A stretch of DNA of 64,000 nucleotides. It comes from an uncultured Candidatus Saccharibacteria bacterium. Its GTDB lineage: Bacteria; Patescibacteriota; Minisyncoccia; Phycocordibacterales; CAIZLB01. The notes beneath the pieces are model-generated. The model worked only from the letters and a program-made list of their open reading frames with translations, had not been told where the DNA came from and did no database searches. Location: NCBI GenBank assembly GCA_964368945.1, contig CAYJDM010000002.1, forward strand, positions 21,386-85,385. The letters are read 5' to 3'. The translations under genes were made by a program, and so were the position numbers. Below are positions 22,435 to 57,440 of the stretch, piece by piece. The number at the start of each line of letters is the position of its first letter. Position 1 is the first letter of the stretch.

Positions 22435-22897
22435 GGCCTAAGTATACATGAGGGATGCGATTGTATCTCTTTACATATATAAAAAATAAATTCCCTATAT
22501 GTAATATGTCATGTGGATAAGTGGATACTTTATCCCCAAGGCCAGAAATATGGGCTGATCCGAATTTGTTATCAGAAATGCCATGTGGGTTCGGCTGGGG
22601 AAAGATCAAAAGGACTTAAAAGACGGCTAAAAGACTGGGTATATTCAACATGCTATTAAAGACAATCCCCTACTTATACCCATAGTAATCCCCATCGAAA
22701 ATAAGGATCCCCACAACTTATTCACAGGGTTATCCACACTGTGCATAAAGTACATAAAACTGGGGAAAACTATTGGACAAAACAGCCTCAAATTACTGTC
22801 CATAAAGACAAAACAAGCAAAAAACCCGCCTTTAAGCGAGTCTTTTTGACAATCATCCTTAAAAATATGGCTTAGAATAAGGATTGTGTGTTTTGAC
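22435..22897. other. Putative chromosomal replication origin (oriC): a DnaA-box cluster plus AT-rich unwinding element between dnaA and dnaN
   Basis: Perfect DnaA boxes are TGTGGATAA (22511-22519) and TTATCCACA (about 22730). One-mismatch boxes include TTATCCcCA, TTATtCACA and gTGGATAc. An AT-rich tract catatataaaaaataaatt lies at about 22475. Confidence 0.7.
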
Positions 22898-49700: not shown

Positions 49701-50075
49701 TTACTTAGAAGATTTTGTAGACTTCTTCTTTGCAACCTTCGTTTCCTTTGCCTTTGTTCGGATAGCCTTGGCTGTCTTTGCAGGAGCATCAGTCTTCTTG
49801 CTCGCATCCTTTCGCTTGATATCAAGCTTAGAAATAAGGGCATCGTATCGAGCAGAATCCTTCTTCTGAAGGTATTTGAGGTGAGACTGTCGATTAGCTA
49901 CGAGCTGCAAAAGGCCTCGTCGAGAGTGATTATCCTTCTGGTGCTTCTTAAGGTGCTTTGTGAGCTCCTCGATCTTCTCGCTGATAAGGGCAATCTGCGC
50001 CTCAGGAGAACCAGTGTCCTTGGCATGGACCTGTACGCCCTTGATTACTCGCTGTTTTTTAGACTTTGTTAACAT
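49701..50075 (-). CDS. rpsO: 30S ribosomal protein S15 with a Lys-rich C-terminal extension
   Basis: ...GSPEAQIALISEKIEELTKHLKKHQKDNHSRRGLLQLVANRQSHLKYL matches S15. Confidence 0.85.
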   Translation of the reverse strand: MLTKSKKQRVIKGVQVHAKDTGSPEAQIALISEKIEELTKHLKKHQKDNHSRRGLLQLVANRQSHLKYLQKKDSARYDALISKLDIKRKDASKKTDAPAKTAKAIRTKAKETKVAKKKSTKSSK

Positions 50076-50249
50076 GATTCCCAAGATTATCACAGTTATC
50101 CCCAGTATGCAAGCCGATCCATGGCGTTTTCAGGGGTAGTTTGGTCCAATCTAGGCCTTTGTTGGGCCGTTTTTCTCTATATTTGCATTTGATAAAAGCT
50201 CCCGGGTCCCAATTTCAGGCACCCTATGAATTCAGCCATGGTACTATGA

Positions 50250-51221
50250 ATGCGTATTTTGTCGCAAAATAATATGTCAGACGCCTCAAGCCAGAATAAA
50301 AATAATGCTCCAAAAAATCAGCTTCAGATGCTGAAGCGTCATTTTCTCGAATATATCGAGATCGAGCGAGGCCGAAGCCTGCGCACCGTCCTTAATTATG
50401 ACCATTATTTGAGCCGTTTTTTGGATTTTTCCAAGCTTTCCGACCCGGCCGACATCAATGAGGAGAATATCCGCGAATTCAGGCTCTGGTTGAACCGCCA
50501 ATCAGCTGGCAAGGCTGGAAAAGGCCGCATTTATGCCACCGGACAGGATACCCTCAAGAAAAAGACCCAGAATTACTATCTGATCGCTCTTAGGTCTTTT
50601 CTCAAATTCATGATTACCAAGCGCGGCATCCAAACCGTCTCGCCTGAGGTGATCGAATTGGCCAAAGTGCCCGAAAGAACCCTTGATCTCATGCATCAGG
50701 ATGAATTATATCGCCTATTAGACGCTCCGAAAGACAATAAGGATCCCAAAAAAGCCCTCCGTGATCGCGCAATCCTTGAAACCCTCTTCTCTACCGGCCT
50801 TCGAGTATCGGAGCTTTGCAATCTGCCCCGAGACCTCGATCTGACCAAAGATGAATTCTCAGTCCGAGGAAAGGGCGAAAAAGTCCGCGTCGTCTTTTTA
50901 TCTGAGAATGCGCGCGCGACAATCAAGGCATATTTGGCCAAGGCTACGGATATAGACTCCGCTACGCTATTTAATACGTATCCCCGCGAAGTACAGCGCC
51001 TCATCAAGCACTATGCCGCAAAGGCCGGAATTTCGCGAAAGGTGACGCCTCATATCGTGCGGCATAGCTTCGCTACCGATCTTTTGCAGAATGGCGCCGA
51101 TCTGCGCTCGGTCCAGGCACTGCTCGGCCATGCGAATATCGCCACTACGCAGATCTATACTCATGTTACTGACAAGCATCTCAAGGATATTCACAAGAAT
51201 TTCCACAGCAAGCGCTCATAG
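50250..51221 (+). CDS. Tyrosine site-specific recombinase XerC/XerD family
   Basis: The catalytic-domain motifs ...GLRVSEL... and HIVRHSFATDLLQNGADLRSVQALLGHANIATTQIYTHV (R...HxxR...Y) are present. Confidence 0.85.
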   Translation: MRILSQNNMSDASSQNKNNAPKNQLQMLKRHFLEYIEIERGRSLRTVLNYDHYLSRFLDFSKLSDPADINEENIREFRLWLNRQSAGKAGKGRIYATGQDTLKKKTQNYYLIALRSFLKFMITKRGIQTVSPEVIELAKVPERTLDLMHQDELYRLLDAPKDNKDPKKALRDRAILETLFSTGLRVSELCNLPRDLDLTKDEFSVRGKGEKVRVVFLSENARATIKAYLAKATDIDSATLFNTYPREVQRLIKHYAAKAGISRKVTPHIVRHSFATDLLQNGADLRSVQALLGHANIATTQIYTHVTDKHLKDIHKNFHSKRS

Positions 51222-51235
51222 GTTACACTTAGCAG

Positions 51236-52078
51236 ATGAATAAGACTGCGACAAAGACTGCTAAATCAGCCGGCAAAAGCGCAAAGGGCGCATTTCCCAA
51301 TAAGATCCTCTGCTGGAATGTAAATGGAGTGCGCGCCCTTATCAAAAAGGGCGGCTTTCAGTCTATCCTCGATCAGAATGCGGATATTTTTTGCCTACAG
51401 GAGACAAAGGCACATCCCGAGCAGCTTCCAGAGGAATTTCGCAATCCTGCCGGCTATCATTCTTTTTTCGATCATTCAAAGATCAAGAAGGGCTATAGCG
51501 GCGTCGTAATCTATACCAAGATGGAGCCAGAGAAATTCGTGGATGCCTTCCTCATCAATGGCGACAAGGAGCCTGCCGATCATGAGGGGCGATTCATGCA
51601 GCTCGACTTCCCTGCATTTACCCTTATCAACTGCTATTTCCCCAATGGCGGCGGCCTCCCCGAACGACTTGTCTATAAGCTTAAATTCTTTACTTCATTC
51701 GTAAAGCATGTGAAAAAGCTCCTCGCAGAAGGGCGCGAGCTGATTGTCTGCGGCGATTTCAATATCGTGCACAAAGAGCTCGATTCAGCGCGATTCAAGG
51801 AGAATCAAGGGAATATCGGCTTCCTTCCCGAGGAGCGTGCCCAGATGGATGCTCTCGTAGACGCTGGATTGATCGATATATTCAGGCATTTTTATCCTGA
51901 TAAAAAAGACGCATATACATGGTGGGATATGAAGTCATTCGCTCGCGATCGAAATATCGGTTGGAGAATCGACACATTCTTTGCAACGAAAGGACTTGTG
52001 GATAACTTAAAAGATATGCAAATCGAATCTGAAATTTACGGTTCGGACCACTGCCCTGTTGTCCTTGAATTTAAGTAA
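51236..52078 (+). CDS. xth: Exodeoxyribonuclease III (Xth/APE1 family)
   Basis: KILCWNVNGVRA...IFCLQETK... and GSDHCPVVLEF are EEP nuclease motifs. Confidence 0.9.
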   Translation: MNKTATKTAKSAGKSAKGAFPNKILCWNVNGVRALIKKGGFQSILDQNADIFCLQETKAHPEQLPEEFRNPAGYHSFFDHSKIKKGYSGVVIYTKMEPEKFVDAFLINGDKEPADHEGRFMQLDFPAFTLINCYFPNGGGLPERLVYKLKFFTSFVKHVKKLLAEGRELIVCGDFNIVHKELDSARFKENQGNIGFLPEERAQMDALVDAGLIDIFRHFYPDKKDAYTWWDMKSFARDRNIGWRIDTFFATKGLVDNLKDMQIESEIYGSDHCPVVLEFK

Positions 52079-52128
52079 TTTCCCTGCGCAATTGCATGTG
52101 GCTTGTCCTTTATCCACAAGATAATTTC

Positions 52129-52156
52129 GCTATGTCCTTTACACTTCATTAAGGAC
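52129..52156 (+). promoter_or_regulatory. Promoter TTTACA-16nt-TATAAT with no downstream + strand ORF
   Basis: The sequence is tttacacttcattaaggacatataat. A perfect DnaA box TTATCCACA lies 10 nt upstream, at 52111-52119. Confidence 0.5.
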
Positions 52157-52486
52157 ATATATAATGTGATGCAGAGAGCGCTCTTCAGTTAGAGGCAGCA
52201 GTTGTTTGATTCATGGAATCATCGGTAATAAGGGAGGGATTCGCGAAACGAGTCCTCAAAATATATTTTAAGCAGTGACTTCCGTTATCGCCTAAAAATC
52301 CCCCGCTGTTATGCGACAGATTCCTTGCCGCCCTTTTTATGGGTTGGCTCTCTTACAAACCGCTTACGAGCGGCGCTACAAATTTTCTTTGGGACGGGTA
52401 CGTTAAATTATTGAGGTAAAAGTTCTTTCACAACAATGCGCCACTCTAGGCGGTTTATTTTTGCCTGGATTTTTCATATACATAAG

Positions 52487-52513
52487 CAAAAACCGGCGAT
52501 TTGCCGGTTTTAA
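52487..52513. terminator. Bidirectional intrinsic terminator. It ends the cca gene on the minus strand and the putative + strand transcript.
   Basis: The stem aaccggc / gccggtt has loop gattt and is flanked by an A-run and a T-run. Confidence 0.7.
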
Positions 52514-52514
52514 G

Positions 52515-53996
52515 CTATTTGACTCGGTATTTGTCCTTTATAACCTTGAGTTCGGCTTCCTCTACCATATCTTTCTTTGCAATCGCCACCGCGGACATCG
52601 ATTTCAGTTCCTCGGTAGGCATCTTTTCAAGCTCTGTGACACGTGAAACGAGGCTTTCTACTGTATTCTTCGCCGGATCTTCAATCACATCTTCTAGGAG
52701 AATGTTTAACATGAAACCTATTCTCGGTCCTGGTTCCACATGTAACGTTTCGATTATATCCTTCCCATCAATTTTGAGCATTCCTACAGATACCGGATCC
52801 CTGAGAACCTCTTCGATCATGGATATGTATTTTCGAAGTCTGTAAGGGTCTTCTTTAGGACGACCTGTTCCTACTCGGTCACAGATCCGAAGATTGATCA
52901 GATCCCATATAAGCTTATCCCCTACATTGGCAACCATTCTTCGTACGGCAGATAAGGTAATCTGATTAACATCGCTGAAAAACATATGCCATCGGACGAG
53001 TTTTGTTACGATTTCCATCGTTTCACGTGAAAACTTAAGTCTCTCAAGGATAGATTTTGCCATCTTCGCCCCTACAACCTCATGTCCGTAAAAGGTATAG
53101 TCACCTTTTTCTTCTGAATATCGGCGGCTCCTTGGCTTCCCTACATCATGTAATAGGGCGGCTAACCTAACCTCTAATGGGTATTTTTTGTCTATTGCAC
53201 ATTGTAGGCTTCGAACCAGGTGCTCGAATACCTCAAAGCTATGTGCCTGATTCTGTTTCATATGTAACCCTTCCTCTAATTCAGGCAGGATTTTAGCCAA
53301 AAGGCCCATTTTCTGTAAGACAAACAACCCCATGGCTCCGTTATCGGACATAAGGAGCTTGGAAAGCTCGTCTCTTATGCGCTCCCAAGCGATCTTTTCA
53401 AGGACAGACACATTCTTTGTAATGGACATTTCAGTGTCCGATTCAATGGTGAATCCGAGTTCAGCTGCTAATCGGACAGCGCGCATTATCCTGAGTCCAT
53501 CTTCCCTGAACCGGGCTCCCGGCTCCCCTACTGTCCTTAATGTCTTTGATGAAATATCGTTCACTCCGTCGAAATCATCCACGAAAATATCGCCTATCGG
53601 ATCATATGCTATCGCATTTATCGTAAAGTCTCGGCGCATCAGATCGTCATGGATATTGTCGCTGAAGCTTATCGTATCCGGGTGCCGAGCATCCCCATAC
53701 TCTGACTCTACTCGATAAGGAGTCACTTCGATTATTTTCAAGCTGGGATTTGCCTCTTCTTCGAATACCACCCCTACCGTTCCATAGGTGTTCTCATAAT
53801 AGGTCTTTGGGAACAATGCGATGATCTCGTCGGGCACGGCATCTGTGGTGATATCCCAGTCTTTGGGCTCTTTTCCCAGGATAATATCGCGCACGCAGCC
53901 CCCTACCAGGTATGCTTCGAATCCGGCATTTTGCAACACTTTAATACATTCCAGGGCATTTGCCGGGATTGCGCTATTGATCTTAGGGGCATTCAT
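52515..53996 (-). CDS. cca: CCA-adding tRNA nucleotidyltransferase / poly(A) polymerase family with a C-terminal HD domain
   Basis: The pattern GGCVRDIILGKEPKDWDITTDA matches the nucleotidyltransferase head. An HD motif LLHDVGKP is also present. Confidence 0.85.
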   Translation of the reverse strand: MNAPKINSAIPANALECIKVLQNAGFEAYLVGGCVRDIILGKEPKDWDITTDAVPDEIIALFPKTYYENTYGTVGVVFEEEANPSLKIIEVTPYRVESEYGDARHPDTISFSDNIHDDLMRRDFTINAIAYDPIGDIFVDDFDGVNDISSKTLRTVGEPGARFREDGLRIMRAVRLAAELGFTIESDTEMSITKNVSVLEKIAWERIRDELSKLLMSDNGAMGLFVLQKMGLLAKILPELEEGLHMKQNQAHSFEVFEHLVRSLQCAIDKKYPLEVRLAALLHDVGKPRSRRYSEEKGDYTFYGHEVVGAKMAKSILERLKFSRETMEIVTKLVRWHMFFSDVNQITLSAVRRMVANVGDKLIWDLINLRICDRVGTGRPKEDPYRLRKYISMIEEVLRDPVSVGMLKIDGKDIIETLHVEPGPRIGFMLNILLEDVIEDPAKNTVESLVSRVTELEKMPTEELKSMSAVAIAKKDMVEEAELKVIKDKYRVK

Positions 53997-54072
53997 TGGT
54001 GAAATAGTAGTATATATTTTGATTTTTTGCTATTTATGATGTAATATCATCCTGCTGAGTTGAACATTATAT

Positions 54073-54144
54073 GCACTTGTGGTGAAATGGATATCACAAC
54101 GGTCTTCGGAACCGTTATTCCAGGTTCGAATCCTGGCAGGTGCA
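54073..54144 (+). tRNA. tRNA-Arg (anticodon TCG)
   Basis: The acceptor is GCACTTG/CAGGTGC, the D-stem is GTGA/TCAC, the anticodon loop is cuUCGga and the T-arm is CCAGGTTCGAATCCTGG. Confidence 0.8.
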
Positions 54145-54177
54145 CATGTCGTAGAAATAGGACATATGCGGGTATGG

Positions 54178-54248
54178 TTTAGTGGTAGAATACGTCCTTG
54201 CCAAGGACGAGACAAGGGTTCGATTCCCTTTACCCGCACCAAATACAA
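54178..54248 (+). tRNA. tRNA-Gly (anticodon GCC); CCA is encoded at 54249-54251
   Basis: The acceptor is GCGGGTA/TACCCGC, the anticodon loop is cuUGCCaa and the T-arm is AAGGGTTCGATTCCCTT. Confidence 0.9.
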
Positions 54249-54250
54249 AG

Positions 54251-54296
54251 GCACCCATGCTAATAGCATGGGTGCCTTTGTATTTGGCCGGAGCTA
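54251..54296 (+). terminator. Strong intrinsic terminator after the tRNA-Arg/tRNA-Gly pair
   Basis: The 17-bp stem aaatacaaaggcaccca...tgggtgcctttgtattt is followed by T's. Confidence 0.75.
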
Positions 54297-54398
54297 AGGG
54301 ATGAGAAAGCCGGACGAAGTTGCGCGATGAGCCAAAGGCGAAGCGCAACGAGGAGGCGGGGCCGACGGGCTTTTTGCGGAGCAAAAAGAACCGGTGAC

Positions 54399-54418
54399 CG
54401 ATTCCCTTTACCCGCACC
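54399..54418 (+). repeat. 20-nt perfect direct repeat of the tRNA-Gly(GCC) 3' end (cgattccctttacccgcacc), 168 nt downstream of the tRNA
   Basis: It is identical to 54231-54250. The intervening ~100 nt are GC-rich (~60%), unlike the surrounding sequence. Confidence 0.7.
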
Positions 54419-54758
54419 CCCCTCCTCTATCTCGCGCATATGGCCTTGCTGAGCCCTGTGATTGATTTCTTACGCTTTTCCTTGGCTTTTATCCCCCCCC
54501 AATAAAAGACAAACTGTGGATAACTCAGTGGATATGTGTATAAAAGACAAATTTACTATTGGGTGTTTTGTCCCTGATCCGTGCCGCATATGAAATATAC
54601 GGCTAATTATAAAGCTCATCTAGAATAGTTAAATATAAGTCTTTGAAAATCACCTCATGTACTTTATCCACTTTGTTTCATGTGAAACTAAGTATGACTT
54701 TTTCACCACAATGTAGAATATTGCATATAACTCATATTATTAGCCATATAGTAGCATT

Positions 54759-55304
54759 TTGATCAATATTTCACATGTAACATGTTACATGTATAACATG
54801 GAAGAAATTGCTGAAAAACACTCAAAAAGACGGATAAAGACAGGGTCAATGGGCGAAAAGGCTGTAGATAGGCTCCTTAGCAGGTTTGGCTATACGAATA
54901 TCGCCAGGAATATGGCTCTATATAAGGGTAAAAAGATAGGGGAGATAGATATTTTATCCATAAAGAATGACGTCCTATACATTGTCGAGGTGCGTACGGG
55001 AAGGAATCCTTGGGACAGGGAAGATAGGCTGCCTCAAAGAAAGAGGCAGTCGCTCCTCAATATTCTAAAGGAGCTTTATGTTCTGAGGGCACAACTGCGG
55101 CACGACGTAGTGCATTCGCCTGATCCTGGGATTGATCTGCGATTCAGTCCTTCGGTCGATTTGGCCATACTCAACGAGGCCCTGGTATGTACTGGGAAGA
55201 TCGTAATGGTCCTCGCGGAGGTCAGATTGCCGTCCGGTTTTCCAAGGCCTTCGGCATCAAATAAGTGTCATATTGAATTTAGCCTAATACATCCATATTC
55301 ATAG
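54759..55304 (+). CDS. YraN/UPF0102-family PD-(D/E)xK nuclease-like protein. The start is probably internal, at about 54798 to 54849.
   Basis: ...GEKAVDRLLSRFGYTNIARNMALYKGKKIGEIDILSIKNDVLYIVEVRTGRNP matches the YraN core. Confidence 0.5.
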   Translation: MINISHVTCYMYNMEEIAEKHSKRRIKTGSMGEKAVDRLLSRFGYTNIARNMALYKGKKIGEIDILSIKNDVLYIVEVRTGRNPWDREDRLPQRKRQSLLNILKELYVLRAQLRHDVVHSPDPGIDLRFSPSVDLAILNEALVCTGKIVMVLAEVRLPSGFPRPSASNKCHIEFSLIHPYS

Positions 55305-55394: not shown

Positions 55395-55467
55395 CGGGGC
55401 GTAGTGTAACGGTTAACATTCCTGTTTTGGGAACAGGCGACTCCGGGTTCGAATCCCGGCGCCCCGA
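55395..55467 (+). tRNA. tRNA-Pro (anticodon TGG)
   Basis: The acceptor is CGGGGCG/CGCCCCG, the anticodon loop is tuUGGga and the T-arm is CCGGGTTCGAATCCCGG. Confidence 0.8.
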
Positions 55468-55482
55468 CAAGTAGGTCACATT

Positions 55483-57362: not shown

Positions 57363-57433
57363 TGCGGGATTGGTTTAGTGGCAGAACTGCAGTTTTCCAA
57401 ACTGTAGGCGCCGGTTCGATTCCGGCATCCCGC
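57363..57433 (+). tRNA. tRNA-Gly (anticodon TCC); CCA is encoded at 57434-57436
   Basis: The acceptor is GCGGGAT/ATCCCGC, the anticodon loop is uuUCCaa and the T-arm is GCCGGTTCGATTCCGGC. Confidence 0.85.
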
Positions 57434-57440
57434 ACCAGAC

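Follow-up and report, generated by a model that had tools for sequence, protein, structure and literature searches.

Comparative genomics has brought to light orphan structured non-coding RNAs (ncRNAs) in bacteria, of which raiA, OLE, ROOL, GOLLD and HEARO are examples. DnaA-regulated promoters are also known, and in Escherichia coli they include those of dnaA, mioC and nrd. In Bacillus subtilis, DnaA is reported to form stable complexes at intergenic box clusters (PMC2533591), and a preference of DnaA for closely spaced box pairs has been described (PMC11317965). CcnA of Caulobacter crescentus is reported to be an ncRNA located at the origin and regulated with the cell cycle, with ribosome-binding sites as the targets of its action (PMC8959179). 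Here we analyzed a 64,000-nt stretch of contig CAYJDM010000002.1 (hereafter the window), in which a predicted transcript of about 290 nt (52172–52462, + strand) lies behind a promoter with a DnaA box, in the 436-nt spacer between the convergent genes xth and cca. Placement via relatives fetched through their Cca proteins, which are labeled Kaiserbacteria, Paceibacteria or Parcubacteria, assigns the source genome to the Patescibacteria, or Candidate Phyla Radiation (CPR), class Paceibacteria.

We conclude that the unit is very probably a real ncRNA gene. The fuller statement, that it is an independent structured ncRNA gene of about 290 nt from an undescribed family of a Paceibacteria subclade, with putative DnaA control and action in trans, has in our estimate a probability of about 0.6, and its regulatory and mechanistic parts are much less certain. 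An initial annotation of the spacer had suggested that it may hold an unclassified ncRNA whose promoter carries a DnaA box. This suggestion is supported by the absence of Rfam matches to the body, both at the gathering score and at E<=10, and by the spacers of related genomes, in which the promoter, the DnaA box and the terminator are conserved and the helices show compensatory base changes.

We compared 30 loci, comprising relatives fetched through Cca and metagenome loci fetched through Xth. The same promoter cassette stands directly after xth, on the same strand, in all 30. In the window it consists of a -35 hexamer TTTACA (52138–52143, +), identified by promoter scan and present as TTTACA in 24 of the 30 loci, and a -10 hexamer TATAAT (52160–52165, +) after a 16-nt spacer; TAnnnT follows after 16–17 nt in 29 of the 30. 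The initial annotation had named the same TTTACA-16-TATAAT promoter but placed it at 52129–52156 instead of 52138–52165. The promoter agrees with the consensus at 11 of 12 positions, and no other such site occurs within 51000–54000. Promoter-like sites in this interval are at chance level (4 seen vs 5.1 expected), so the significance of the promoter rests on its conservation in the 30 loci and not on the match itself.

A perfect DnaA box, TTATCCACA, occupies 52110–52118 (+) and ends 19 nt upstream of the -35; its presence had been noted before, but at 52111–52119 and at a distance of 10 nt. Across all 30 loci, one or two DnaA boxes with at most one mismatch end 8–10 and/or 18–20 nt upstream of the -35. 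These two positions differ by one helical turn and are thus in helical phase with the -35. Closely spaced tandem pairs occur at five loci (L020, L030, L032, L033 and L039). In the window, a second perfect copy of TTATCCACA lies on the opposite strand inside the 3' end of xth (51997–52005, -), and the two boxes form an 11-nt perfect inverted repeat (CTTGTGGATAA / TTATCCACAAG) with a separation of 104 nt. The window holds five perfect DnaA boxes where 0.46 would be expected; the dnaA-dnaN spacer accounts for two, and another two flank the end of xth. Both dnaA and dnaN are encoded in the window, as confirmed by Pfam, and the DnaA protein has its ATPase, C-terminal helix-turn-helix and N-terminal domains. 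Two perfect and several near-perfect boxes (22512-, 22718+, 22730+, 22740-) are found at 22500–22760, in the dnaA-dnaN spacer and directly upstream of dnaN. With a consensus box at the promoter, conserved and phased in 30 loci, and DnaA encoded in the window, the locus has the sequence features of a DnaA-regulated promoter, and we infer that DnaA may control it.

The cassette also contains a second repeated motif. Its -35 is supplied by a (T)GTCCTTTACA element, and its spacer carries a second copy of TGTCCTTTA, inverted or direct. In the window, the first TGTCCTTTA copy (52104–52112, +) overlaps the DnaA box, the two together reading TGTCCTTTATCCACA, and the -35 hexamer is embedded in an operator-like inverted repeat, ATGTCCTT-N11-AAGGACAT (52132–52158). 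The same arrangement around the -35 is found at L022, L082–L085, L020, L030, L033, L038, L039 and L004. With at most one mismatch, TGTCCTTTA occurs 34 times in the window against 10 expected, with clusters at 52060–52157 and 54503–54549. It tends to accompany DnaA boxes, and in relatives it often forms the palindrome TGTCCTTTATAAAGGACA.

Behind the cassette, all 30 loci have a body of 225–453 nt that is free of open reading frames (ORFs) and closes with a long hairpin followed by a U-tract. Every one of them has a negative folding z-score, from -0.7 to -9.5 (-3.6 in the window). We placed the predicted start of the window's transcript about 7 nt after the -10 and its predicted end at the U-tract. 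The RNA's own terminator is formed by pairing of 52357–52376 with 52438–52456, followed by the U-tract TTTATTTTT (UUUAUUUUU) up to 52462; the terminator rod and U-tract together span 52357–52462 (+; U-tract 52454–52462) and include a helix with four compensatory pairs. A unit of about 340 nt, bounded by a hairpin at 52487–52513, had been proposed in the initial annotation. That hairpin, AAAACCGGC-GATTT-GCCGGTTTT, is real, at 52489–52513, but it abuts the cca stop codon (52515) and is the terminator of cca; for the RNA it is at most a back-stop. The RNA's own terminator ends at 52462 and the unit is therefore about 290 nt long, not 340. With a near-consensus sigma-70-type promoter and a hairpin plus U-tract on the same strand, it is built as an intrinsically terminated sigma-70 transcription unit.

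The unit shows no sign of coding for a protein. The initial annotation had stated that no ORF exceeds 30 amino acids; the largest inside the unit has 31 (52311–52406) and is missing from L082, L083 and L022. Indels among the relatives are not multiples of three and break the frame throughout, and a small-protein gene was ruled out on these indels and the lack of a shared ORF.

Bodies that can be aligned to that of the window were found at five loci (L022, L082, L083, L084 and L085), and we claim homology of the body for these six sequences only. L022 was matched by nhmmer at 1.6e-13. Because a single covariance model of the whole RNA, at about 300 positions, would be too long to calibrate, two domains were modeled separately: R1, built from three sequences, covers the 5' half, and R2 the 3' half. 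R1 recovered L084, L085 and L022 at E-values of 1e-10 to 1e-8, and R2 did so at 6e-3 to 5e-2; each has a single match in the window, within 52172–52462.

The predicted fold is a succession of four hairpins, namely a 5' hairpin, a 108-nt rod, a short hairpin and a 100-nt terminator rod. The 5' hairpin (GCGCUCU / AGAGGC; 52178–52196, +) is 100% paired, with compensatory changes in two of five pairs (UCU:AGA, CAC:GUG, CCG:CGG). Near it, the initial annotation had pointed out a 10-nt palindrome, AGAGCGCTCT, which is indeed present at 52175–52184; its palindromy is not kept in relatives, in which only the GCGC and the covarying hairpin persist, and we rejected the palindrome as a functional site. 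The rod is a long irregular hairpin of 35 bp (52215–52323, +) in which the G-rich AAGGGAGGG pairs with AUCCCCC and helices 3–5 have 12 pairs with compensatory changes. The short hairpin GCCGCCC / GGGUUGGC (52326–52348, +) shows such changes in seven of eight pairs. The apex of the terminator rod holds UUUGGGACGGGU (52388–52399), invariant in all six members and followed by A in five of the six, and GUUCUUUCACA (52422–52432), which includes the invariant GUUCUUUC (52422–52429). UUUGGGACGGGU and GUUCUUUC are the only long invariant stretches of the RNA.

The test that counts is the comparative one. In the 5' domain, 91.6% of cells are paired and 15 of 44 pairs are compensatory, a result matched by 0 of 500 shuffles; controls with a slid 3' partner gave 36–47% pairing and 2–6 compensatory pairs. 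The 3' domain has 90.9% paired cells and 11 of 30 compensatory pairs, again matched by 0 of 500 shuffles. Both domains together reach 91% pairing with compensatory changes in 26 of 74 pairs in the model-fitted alignments, and a plain MAFFT/RNAalifold alignment already showed 13 of 39. Evidence from the single sequence alone is weak, with folding better than shuffled on both strands (z = -3.7 for + and -5.1 for -). The minus strand, which singly folds at least as well, was nevertheless rejected as the RNA, as the promoter, the U-tract and 64 G·U cells that would become C·A mismatches on the opposite strand favor the plus strand.

We searched for known RNA families that might account for the unit. 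At the gathering score, Rfam 15 returned only five transfer RNAs (tRNAs) in the window and only tRNAs in 16 related loci. At E<=10, the interval 52000–52600 gave just weak matches to terminator hairpins, the type B body (see below) gave no match, and the type A2 body gave weak microRNA and small nucleolar RNA matches only. ARAGORN found no transfer-messenger RNA (tmRNA) in the window or in 24 related loci. These searches bear on the idea that the unit is a highly diverged housekeeping RNA (RNase P RNA, 6S RNA, tmRNA or signal recognition particle (SRP) RNA) that escapes the models. Its size would fit RNase P RNA, its neighborhood is tRNA-related (cca and four tRNA genes), and RNase P RNAs of the CPR are diverged, with 10 of 35 circularized CPR genomes requiring the RF00010 thresholds to be lowered below the noise cut-off (PMC8172020). 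Bacterial RNase P RNA had no match at E<=10 in any of the three body types searched (the window's, A2 and B) and was rejected, although Lui et al. (PMC8172020) went to about 5 bits, lower than E<=10 reaches here. By eye, the six aligned sequences have neither CR-I (GGAAAGUCC) nor CR-V (ACAGAA..GGCUUA) to form P4, and no closing P1. We also rejected tmRNA, which had no ARAGORN or Rfam match in the spacer and for which no tRNA-like end or tag ORF was seen, and 6S RNA, for which there is no RF00013-clan match and whose 5'-3' closing stem and central bubble have no counterpart in the four successive hairpins. SRP RNA gave no match at E<=10 in the three body types. The initial annotation had likewise found the hallmarks of RNase P RNA, tmRNA and SRP RNA lacking, and we consider a diverged member of these families highly improbable. 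A T-box leader was rejected as well (no RF00230 match at E<=10 and no gene downstream on the plus strand); GGGACGGGUAC resembles the T-box GGGUGGUACCGCG only loosely by eye. We found no publication describing such an RNA in CPR bacteria.

The bodies behind the conserved cassette are heterogeneous. Beyond the six alignable sequences, the remaining 24 loci carry at least three further body types (A2, B and C), and the window-type models R1–R3 match none of these 24 bodies, even with filters off. A single family spanning all 30 loci was dropped for this reason. Type A2 bodies start with AGGCCCAGAGAGGGCGAGCAGG and have UACCUCCAA loops. At L020, L030, L033, L038 and L039, the element after xth has a different body of 308–453 nt that starts with AGGCCCAGAGAGGGCGAGCAGG (z -4.7 to -8.4); the hairpin loop UACCUCCAA at these five loci is identical to the anti-Shine-Dalgarno core. 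In type B, a hairpin with loop AACCGAGGA is followed by UGUUCUUUGAA and then by GUGUGGGUA or GGGGUAG. Type B, analyzed on its own, has compensatory changes in 33 of 69 predicted pairs, so these bodies also look structured. Type C comprises the remainder. Either this is one very fast-diverging RNA, or the promoter has stayed in place while the bodies behind it were exchanged. When viral contigs were scanned for further members, 11 and 10 matches resulted, about the estimated chance number, and none was an RNA homologue.

Several points weigh against the ncRNA reading. The alignable sequences are just six, from about four lineages; the model-fitted alignments from which the covariation was counted lean towards structure; and the central region can alternatively be drawn as two local hairpins, with covariation not separating the two folds. 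The transcription start and the 3' end are both predictions. The cassette is not RNA-specific, as it precedes what looks like a protein-coding gene in three contigs from IMG/VR. Finally, since R1–R3 do not recognize the 24 other bodies, the conserved unit might be promoter DNA and not RNA. The viral-classed IMG/VR contigs concerned (L173:145-335, L179, L182; related) carry TTATCCACA .. TGTCCTTTACA .. TGTCTTTTAT .. TACAAT before this apparent protein-coding gene, judged from an ATG about 10 nt past the predicted -10.

In one rival explanation the selected element is DNA and not RNA. A cluster of DnaA boxes, or a promoter close to the origin, would titrate DnaA, or its firing would help or report origin activity, and the transcript would be incidental. 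Models for this are mioC/gid at the E. coli oriC and the DnaA-box clusters of B. subtilis. The DnaA boxes are the most constant feature over the 30 loci, and the two perfect boxes form an inverted repeat with a separation of 104 bp. At a distance of 2.4 kb there is a larger conserved cluster of DnaA boxes next to an AT-rich stretch, and cumulative GC skew reaches its minimum at about 52–56 kb. The RNA bodies are not homologous across types, and stable DnaA complexes are reported at B. subtilis intergenic clusters (PMC2533591). However, the window type and type B (33 of 69 pairs) have compensatory changes in helices distant from the boxes, the terminator is kept in 30 of 30 loci, folding energies are significantly low, and the transcript has an invariant motif of 12 nt at 220 nt from its start. 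An element that works as DNA only would require none of these features, and they weigh against the DNA explanation, which we regard as unlikely.

The cluster just mentioned consists of DnaA-box-like 9-mers (TTATACACA, TATCCAC, TTATCCACA) flanked by TGTCTTTTA (54503–54549, -). In at least 12 loci of Paceibacteria the same element (TGTCCTTTATAAACAnTACnCACATAGTTATCCACA ... TAAAGGACA) is found next to the tRNA-Gly/Arg genes. It is followed by the stretch with the highest AT content in the vicinity (54550–54800, GC 0.28–0.33). The position at ~54.5 kb, 30 kb from dnaA, is a candidate replication origin, and the assignment of an origin near the RNA is only a lead. An origin at the RNA promoter itself was rejected, as there is no AT-rich unwinding stretch there and ~54.5 kb is the better candidate.

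We also considered that the RNA might be a small RNA that acts in trans by base pairing and, in the manner of Caulobacter CcnA, represses or activates messenger RNAs of replication or cell-cycle genes. Its promoter is separate and putatively under a master regulator, it lies near a candidate origin, and CcnA provides a precedent for action at ribosome-binding sites (PMC8959179). Purine-rich and pyrimidine-rich tracts that resemble the Shine-Dalgarno sequence or its complement occur in the window (AAGGGAGGG and AUCCCCC) and, as UACCUCCAA loops, in type A2. The tracts in the window pair with one another, however, and the 290 nt are almost fully paired, with no obvious conserved single-stranded seed. 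A crude full-length duplex scan against 58 translation-start regions of the 64-kb window produced no outlier and unrealistic duplexes. We therefore view a base-pairing function of this kind as quite unlikely.

The gene neighborhood bears on an action in cis. In the window, xth (51236–52078, +) encodes an Exo_endo_phos family protein and cca (52515–53996, -) a protein with PolyA_pol and HD domains; the initial annotation had correctly placed cca on the opposite strand. In a cis-acting device of convergent transcription, conditional read-through of the terminator would send polymerase antisense into cca and so tune the CCA-adding enzyme. The RNA is convergent with cca, there are two terminators in series (52357–52462 and 52489–52513), the invariant 5' GCGC has an alternative pairing partner in the 3' GCGC, and the tRNA genes here have no encoded CCA. 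Against this, other genes or long spacers keep the RNA and cca apart at six loci (L004, L014, L019, L035, L038 and L039), while xth is directly upstream on the same strand at every locus that carries the element; the constant neighbor of the element is xth, not cca. The terminators are strong, with long U-tracts, and we found no ligand- or tRNA-sensing motif (T-box without match at E<=10). A cis device is thus very unlikely in our view. In distant relatives, whose Cca is at most 52% identical (L042, L044 and L057), the gap between xth and cca is merely 30–50 nt and offers no space for the element, which suggests that the element is an insertion typical of one subclade.

Many of the RNAs share a boxA-like element near their 5' end. 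In the window, GTTGTTTGATT (52201–52211, +) directly follows the 5' hairpin. At position 4, critical in E. coli, it has a G and so departs from the gamma-proteobacterial boxA consensus GYTCTTTAANA (PMC5725501), although this consensus may not be that of the host. The corresponding copy is GTTGTTTAACA in L082 and L083 (10 of 11 positions) and GTTCTTTGCAG in L084. A 3' copy in the window, GTTCTTTCACA (52422–52432), agrees with the gamma-proteobacterial consensus at 10 of 11 positions but is predicted to be paired and lies near the 3' end. Over the 30 RNAs, G[TC]TCTTT occurs at 3.6 per kb, compared with 0.31 in the surrounding DNA and 0.53 on the antisense strand, a 12-fold, strand-specific enrichment; it is present in 23 of the 30, usually just past the first hairpin. 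One might picture a CPR-specific housekeeping RNA that is made like ribosomal RNA (rRNA), with a strong promoter, a hairpin-boxA leader and Nus assistance, gated by DnaA beside the origin, and that serves as a ribonucleoprotein subunit or scaffold, or links replication initiation to translation or RNA processing. We offer this picture as distinctly doubtful.

Taking the unit as an independent ncRNA gene, we propose the following mechanism. DnaA would modulate the promoter by binding the phased box or boxes, whose spacing would put them consistently on one helical face immediately upstream of the -35. A second factor would bind the TGTCCTTTA repeats; it would probably be a repressor, because the repeats overlap the -35 and the spacer. 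The level of the RNA would then follow the replication-initiation status of the cell. The RNA presumably acts in trans, since there is no gene downstream on its strand. Binding of a protein, or a role as scaffold, appears likelier than antisense action through a short seed, as the RNA is long, almost fully helical, and has the invariant UUUGGGACGGGU and GUUCUUUC at a helix apex.

CPR bacteria (Patescibacteria) have tiny genomes and almost no experimentally studied regulation. That such a genome spends ~400 bp on a conserved structured RNA behind one of its best promoter matches suggests that the RNA likely matters to the cell. With its constant phased DnaA boxes, the promoter offers a specific case in which one can test whether DnaA serves as transcription factor of an RNA gene in these organisms, and it also reveals a second putative regulatory motif, TGTCCTTTA. 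The alignment of six members, with its fold, suffices for starting a family in the style of Rfam and for metatranscriptome searches.

Other features were noted around the locus. The tRNA genes (54073–54241, 55395–55468, 57364–57437) lack an encoded 3' CCA (AAT follows tRNA-Gly at 54168–54241, for example), which fits the full-length gene for a CCA-adding enzyme adjoining them. Twenty nucleotides from the 3' end of tRNA-Gly(gcc) are repeated without mismatch 178 nt downstream of the gene (54221–54240 and 54399–54418), within a G+C-rich stretch (54242–54440) that is missing from L022, the closest relative in the genome collection; the copy and the stretch look like a scar left by an element that had integrated at this tRNA gene. 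The ORF for ribosomal protein S15 (49701–50093, -) has a long lysine-rich C-terminal tail and a length of about 124–130 amino acids; S15 usually has roughly 89.

Set beside known systems, the locus resembles several and coincides with none. Like E. coli rrn leaders, in which the order is boxB-boxA-boxC, it has a highly structured transcript that is not translated and that opens with a hairpin and then a U-rich element resembling boxA, and the type B order of hairpin, UGUUCUUUGAA and GUGUGGGUA resembles boxB-boxA-boxC. Unlike rRNA leaders, it has no rRNA downstream, and the 5' copy in the window has G at position 4. 6S RNA and Ms1 are comparable as abundant-type, fast-evolving, mostly helical RNAs with little sequence conservation, but they have a 5'-3' closing stem and a central bubble, and neither Rfam 6S nor Ms1 matches here. 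With CcnA the RNA shares a promoter seemingly wired to a master regulator of replication or the cell cycle and a position near a (candidate) origin. CcnA differs in presumably being activated by CtrA, not DnaA, and in pairing, as reported, with the ribosome-binding sites of ctrA and gcrA (PMC8959179); it has no sequence relationship to the RNA described here.

The promoter itself agrees with known DnaA-regulated promoters in having one or two consensus boxes directly upstream, often as a tandem pair, and differs from them in that the product is an ncRNA instead of a protein and that the boxes are flanked by TGTCCTTTA. The closest likeness in kind is to the orphan ncRNAs. Like these, the RNA comes from a stand-alone intergenic gene equipped with a separate promoter and terminator, measures a few hundred nucleotides, and has covarying helices and a narrow phylogenetic range. 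It differs from them in showing no likeness to any Rfam 15 family (raiA, OLE, ROOL, GOLLD and HEARO being covered by this search only if they are in Rfam 15), in its restriction to Paceibacteria, in its DnaA-box promoter and in its fixed place after xth. It is thus a new family of a familiar kind, an orphan structured bacterial ncRNA, and what sets it apart is the strictly conserved DnaA-box promoter together with the fixed position behind xth.

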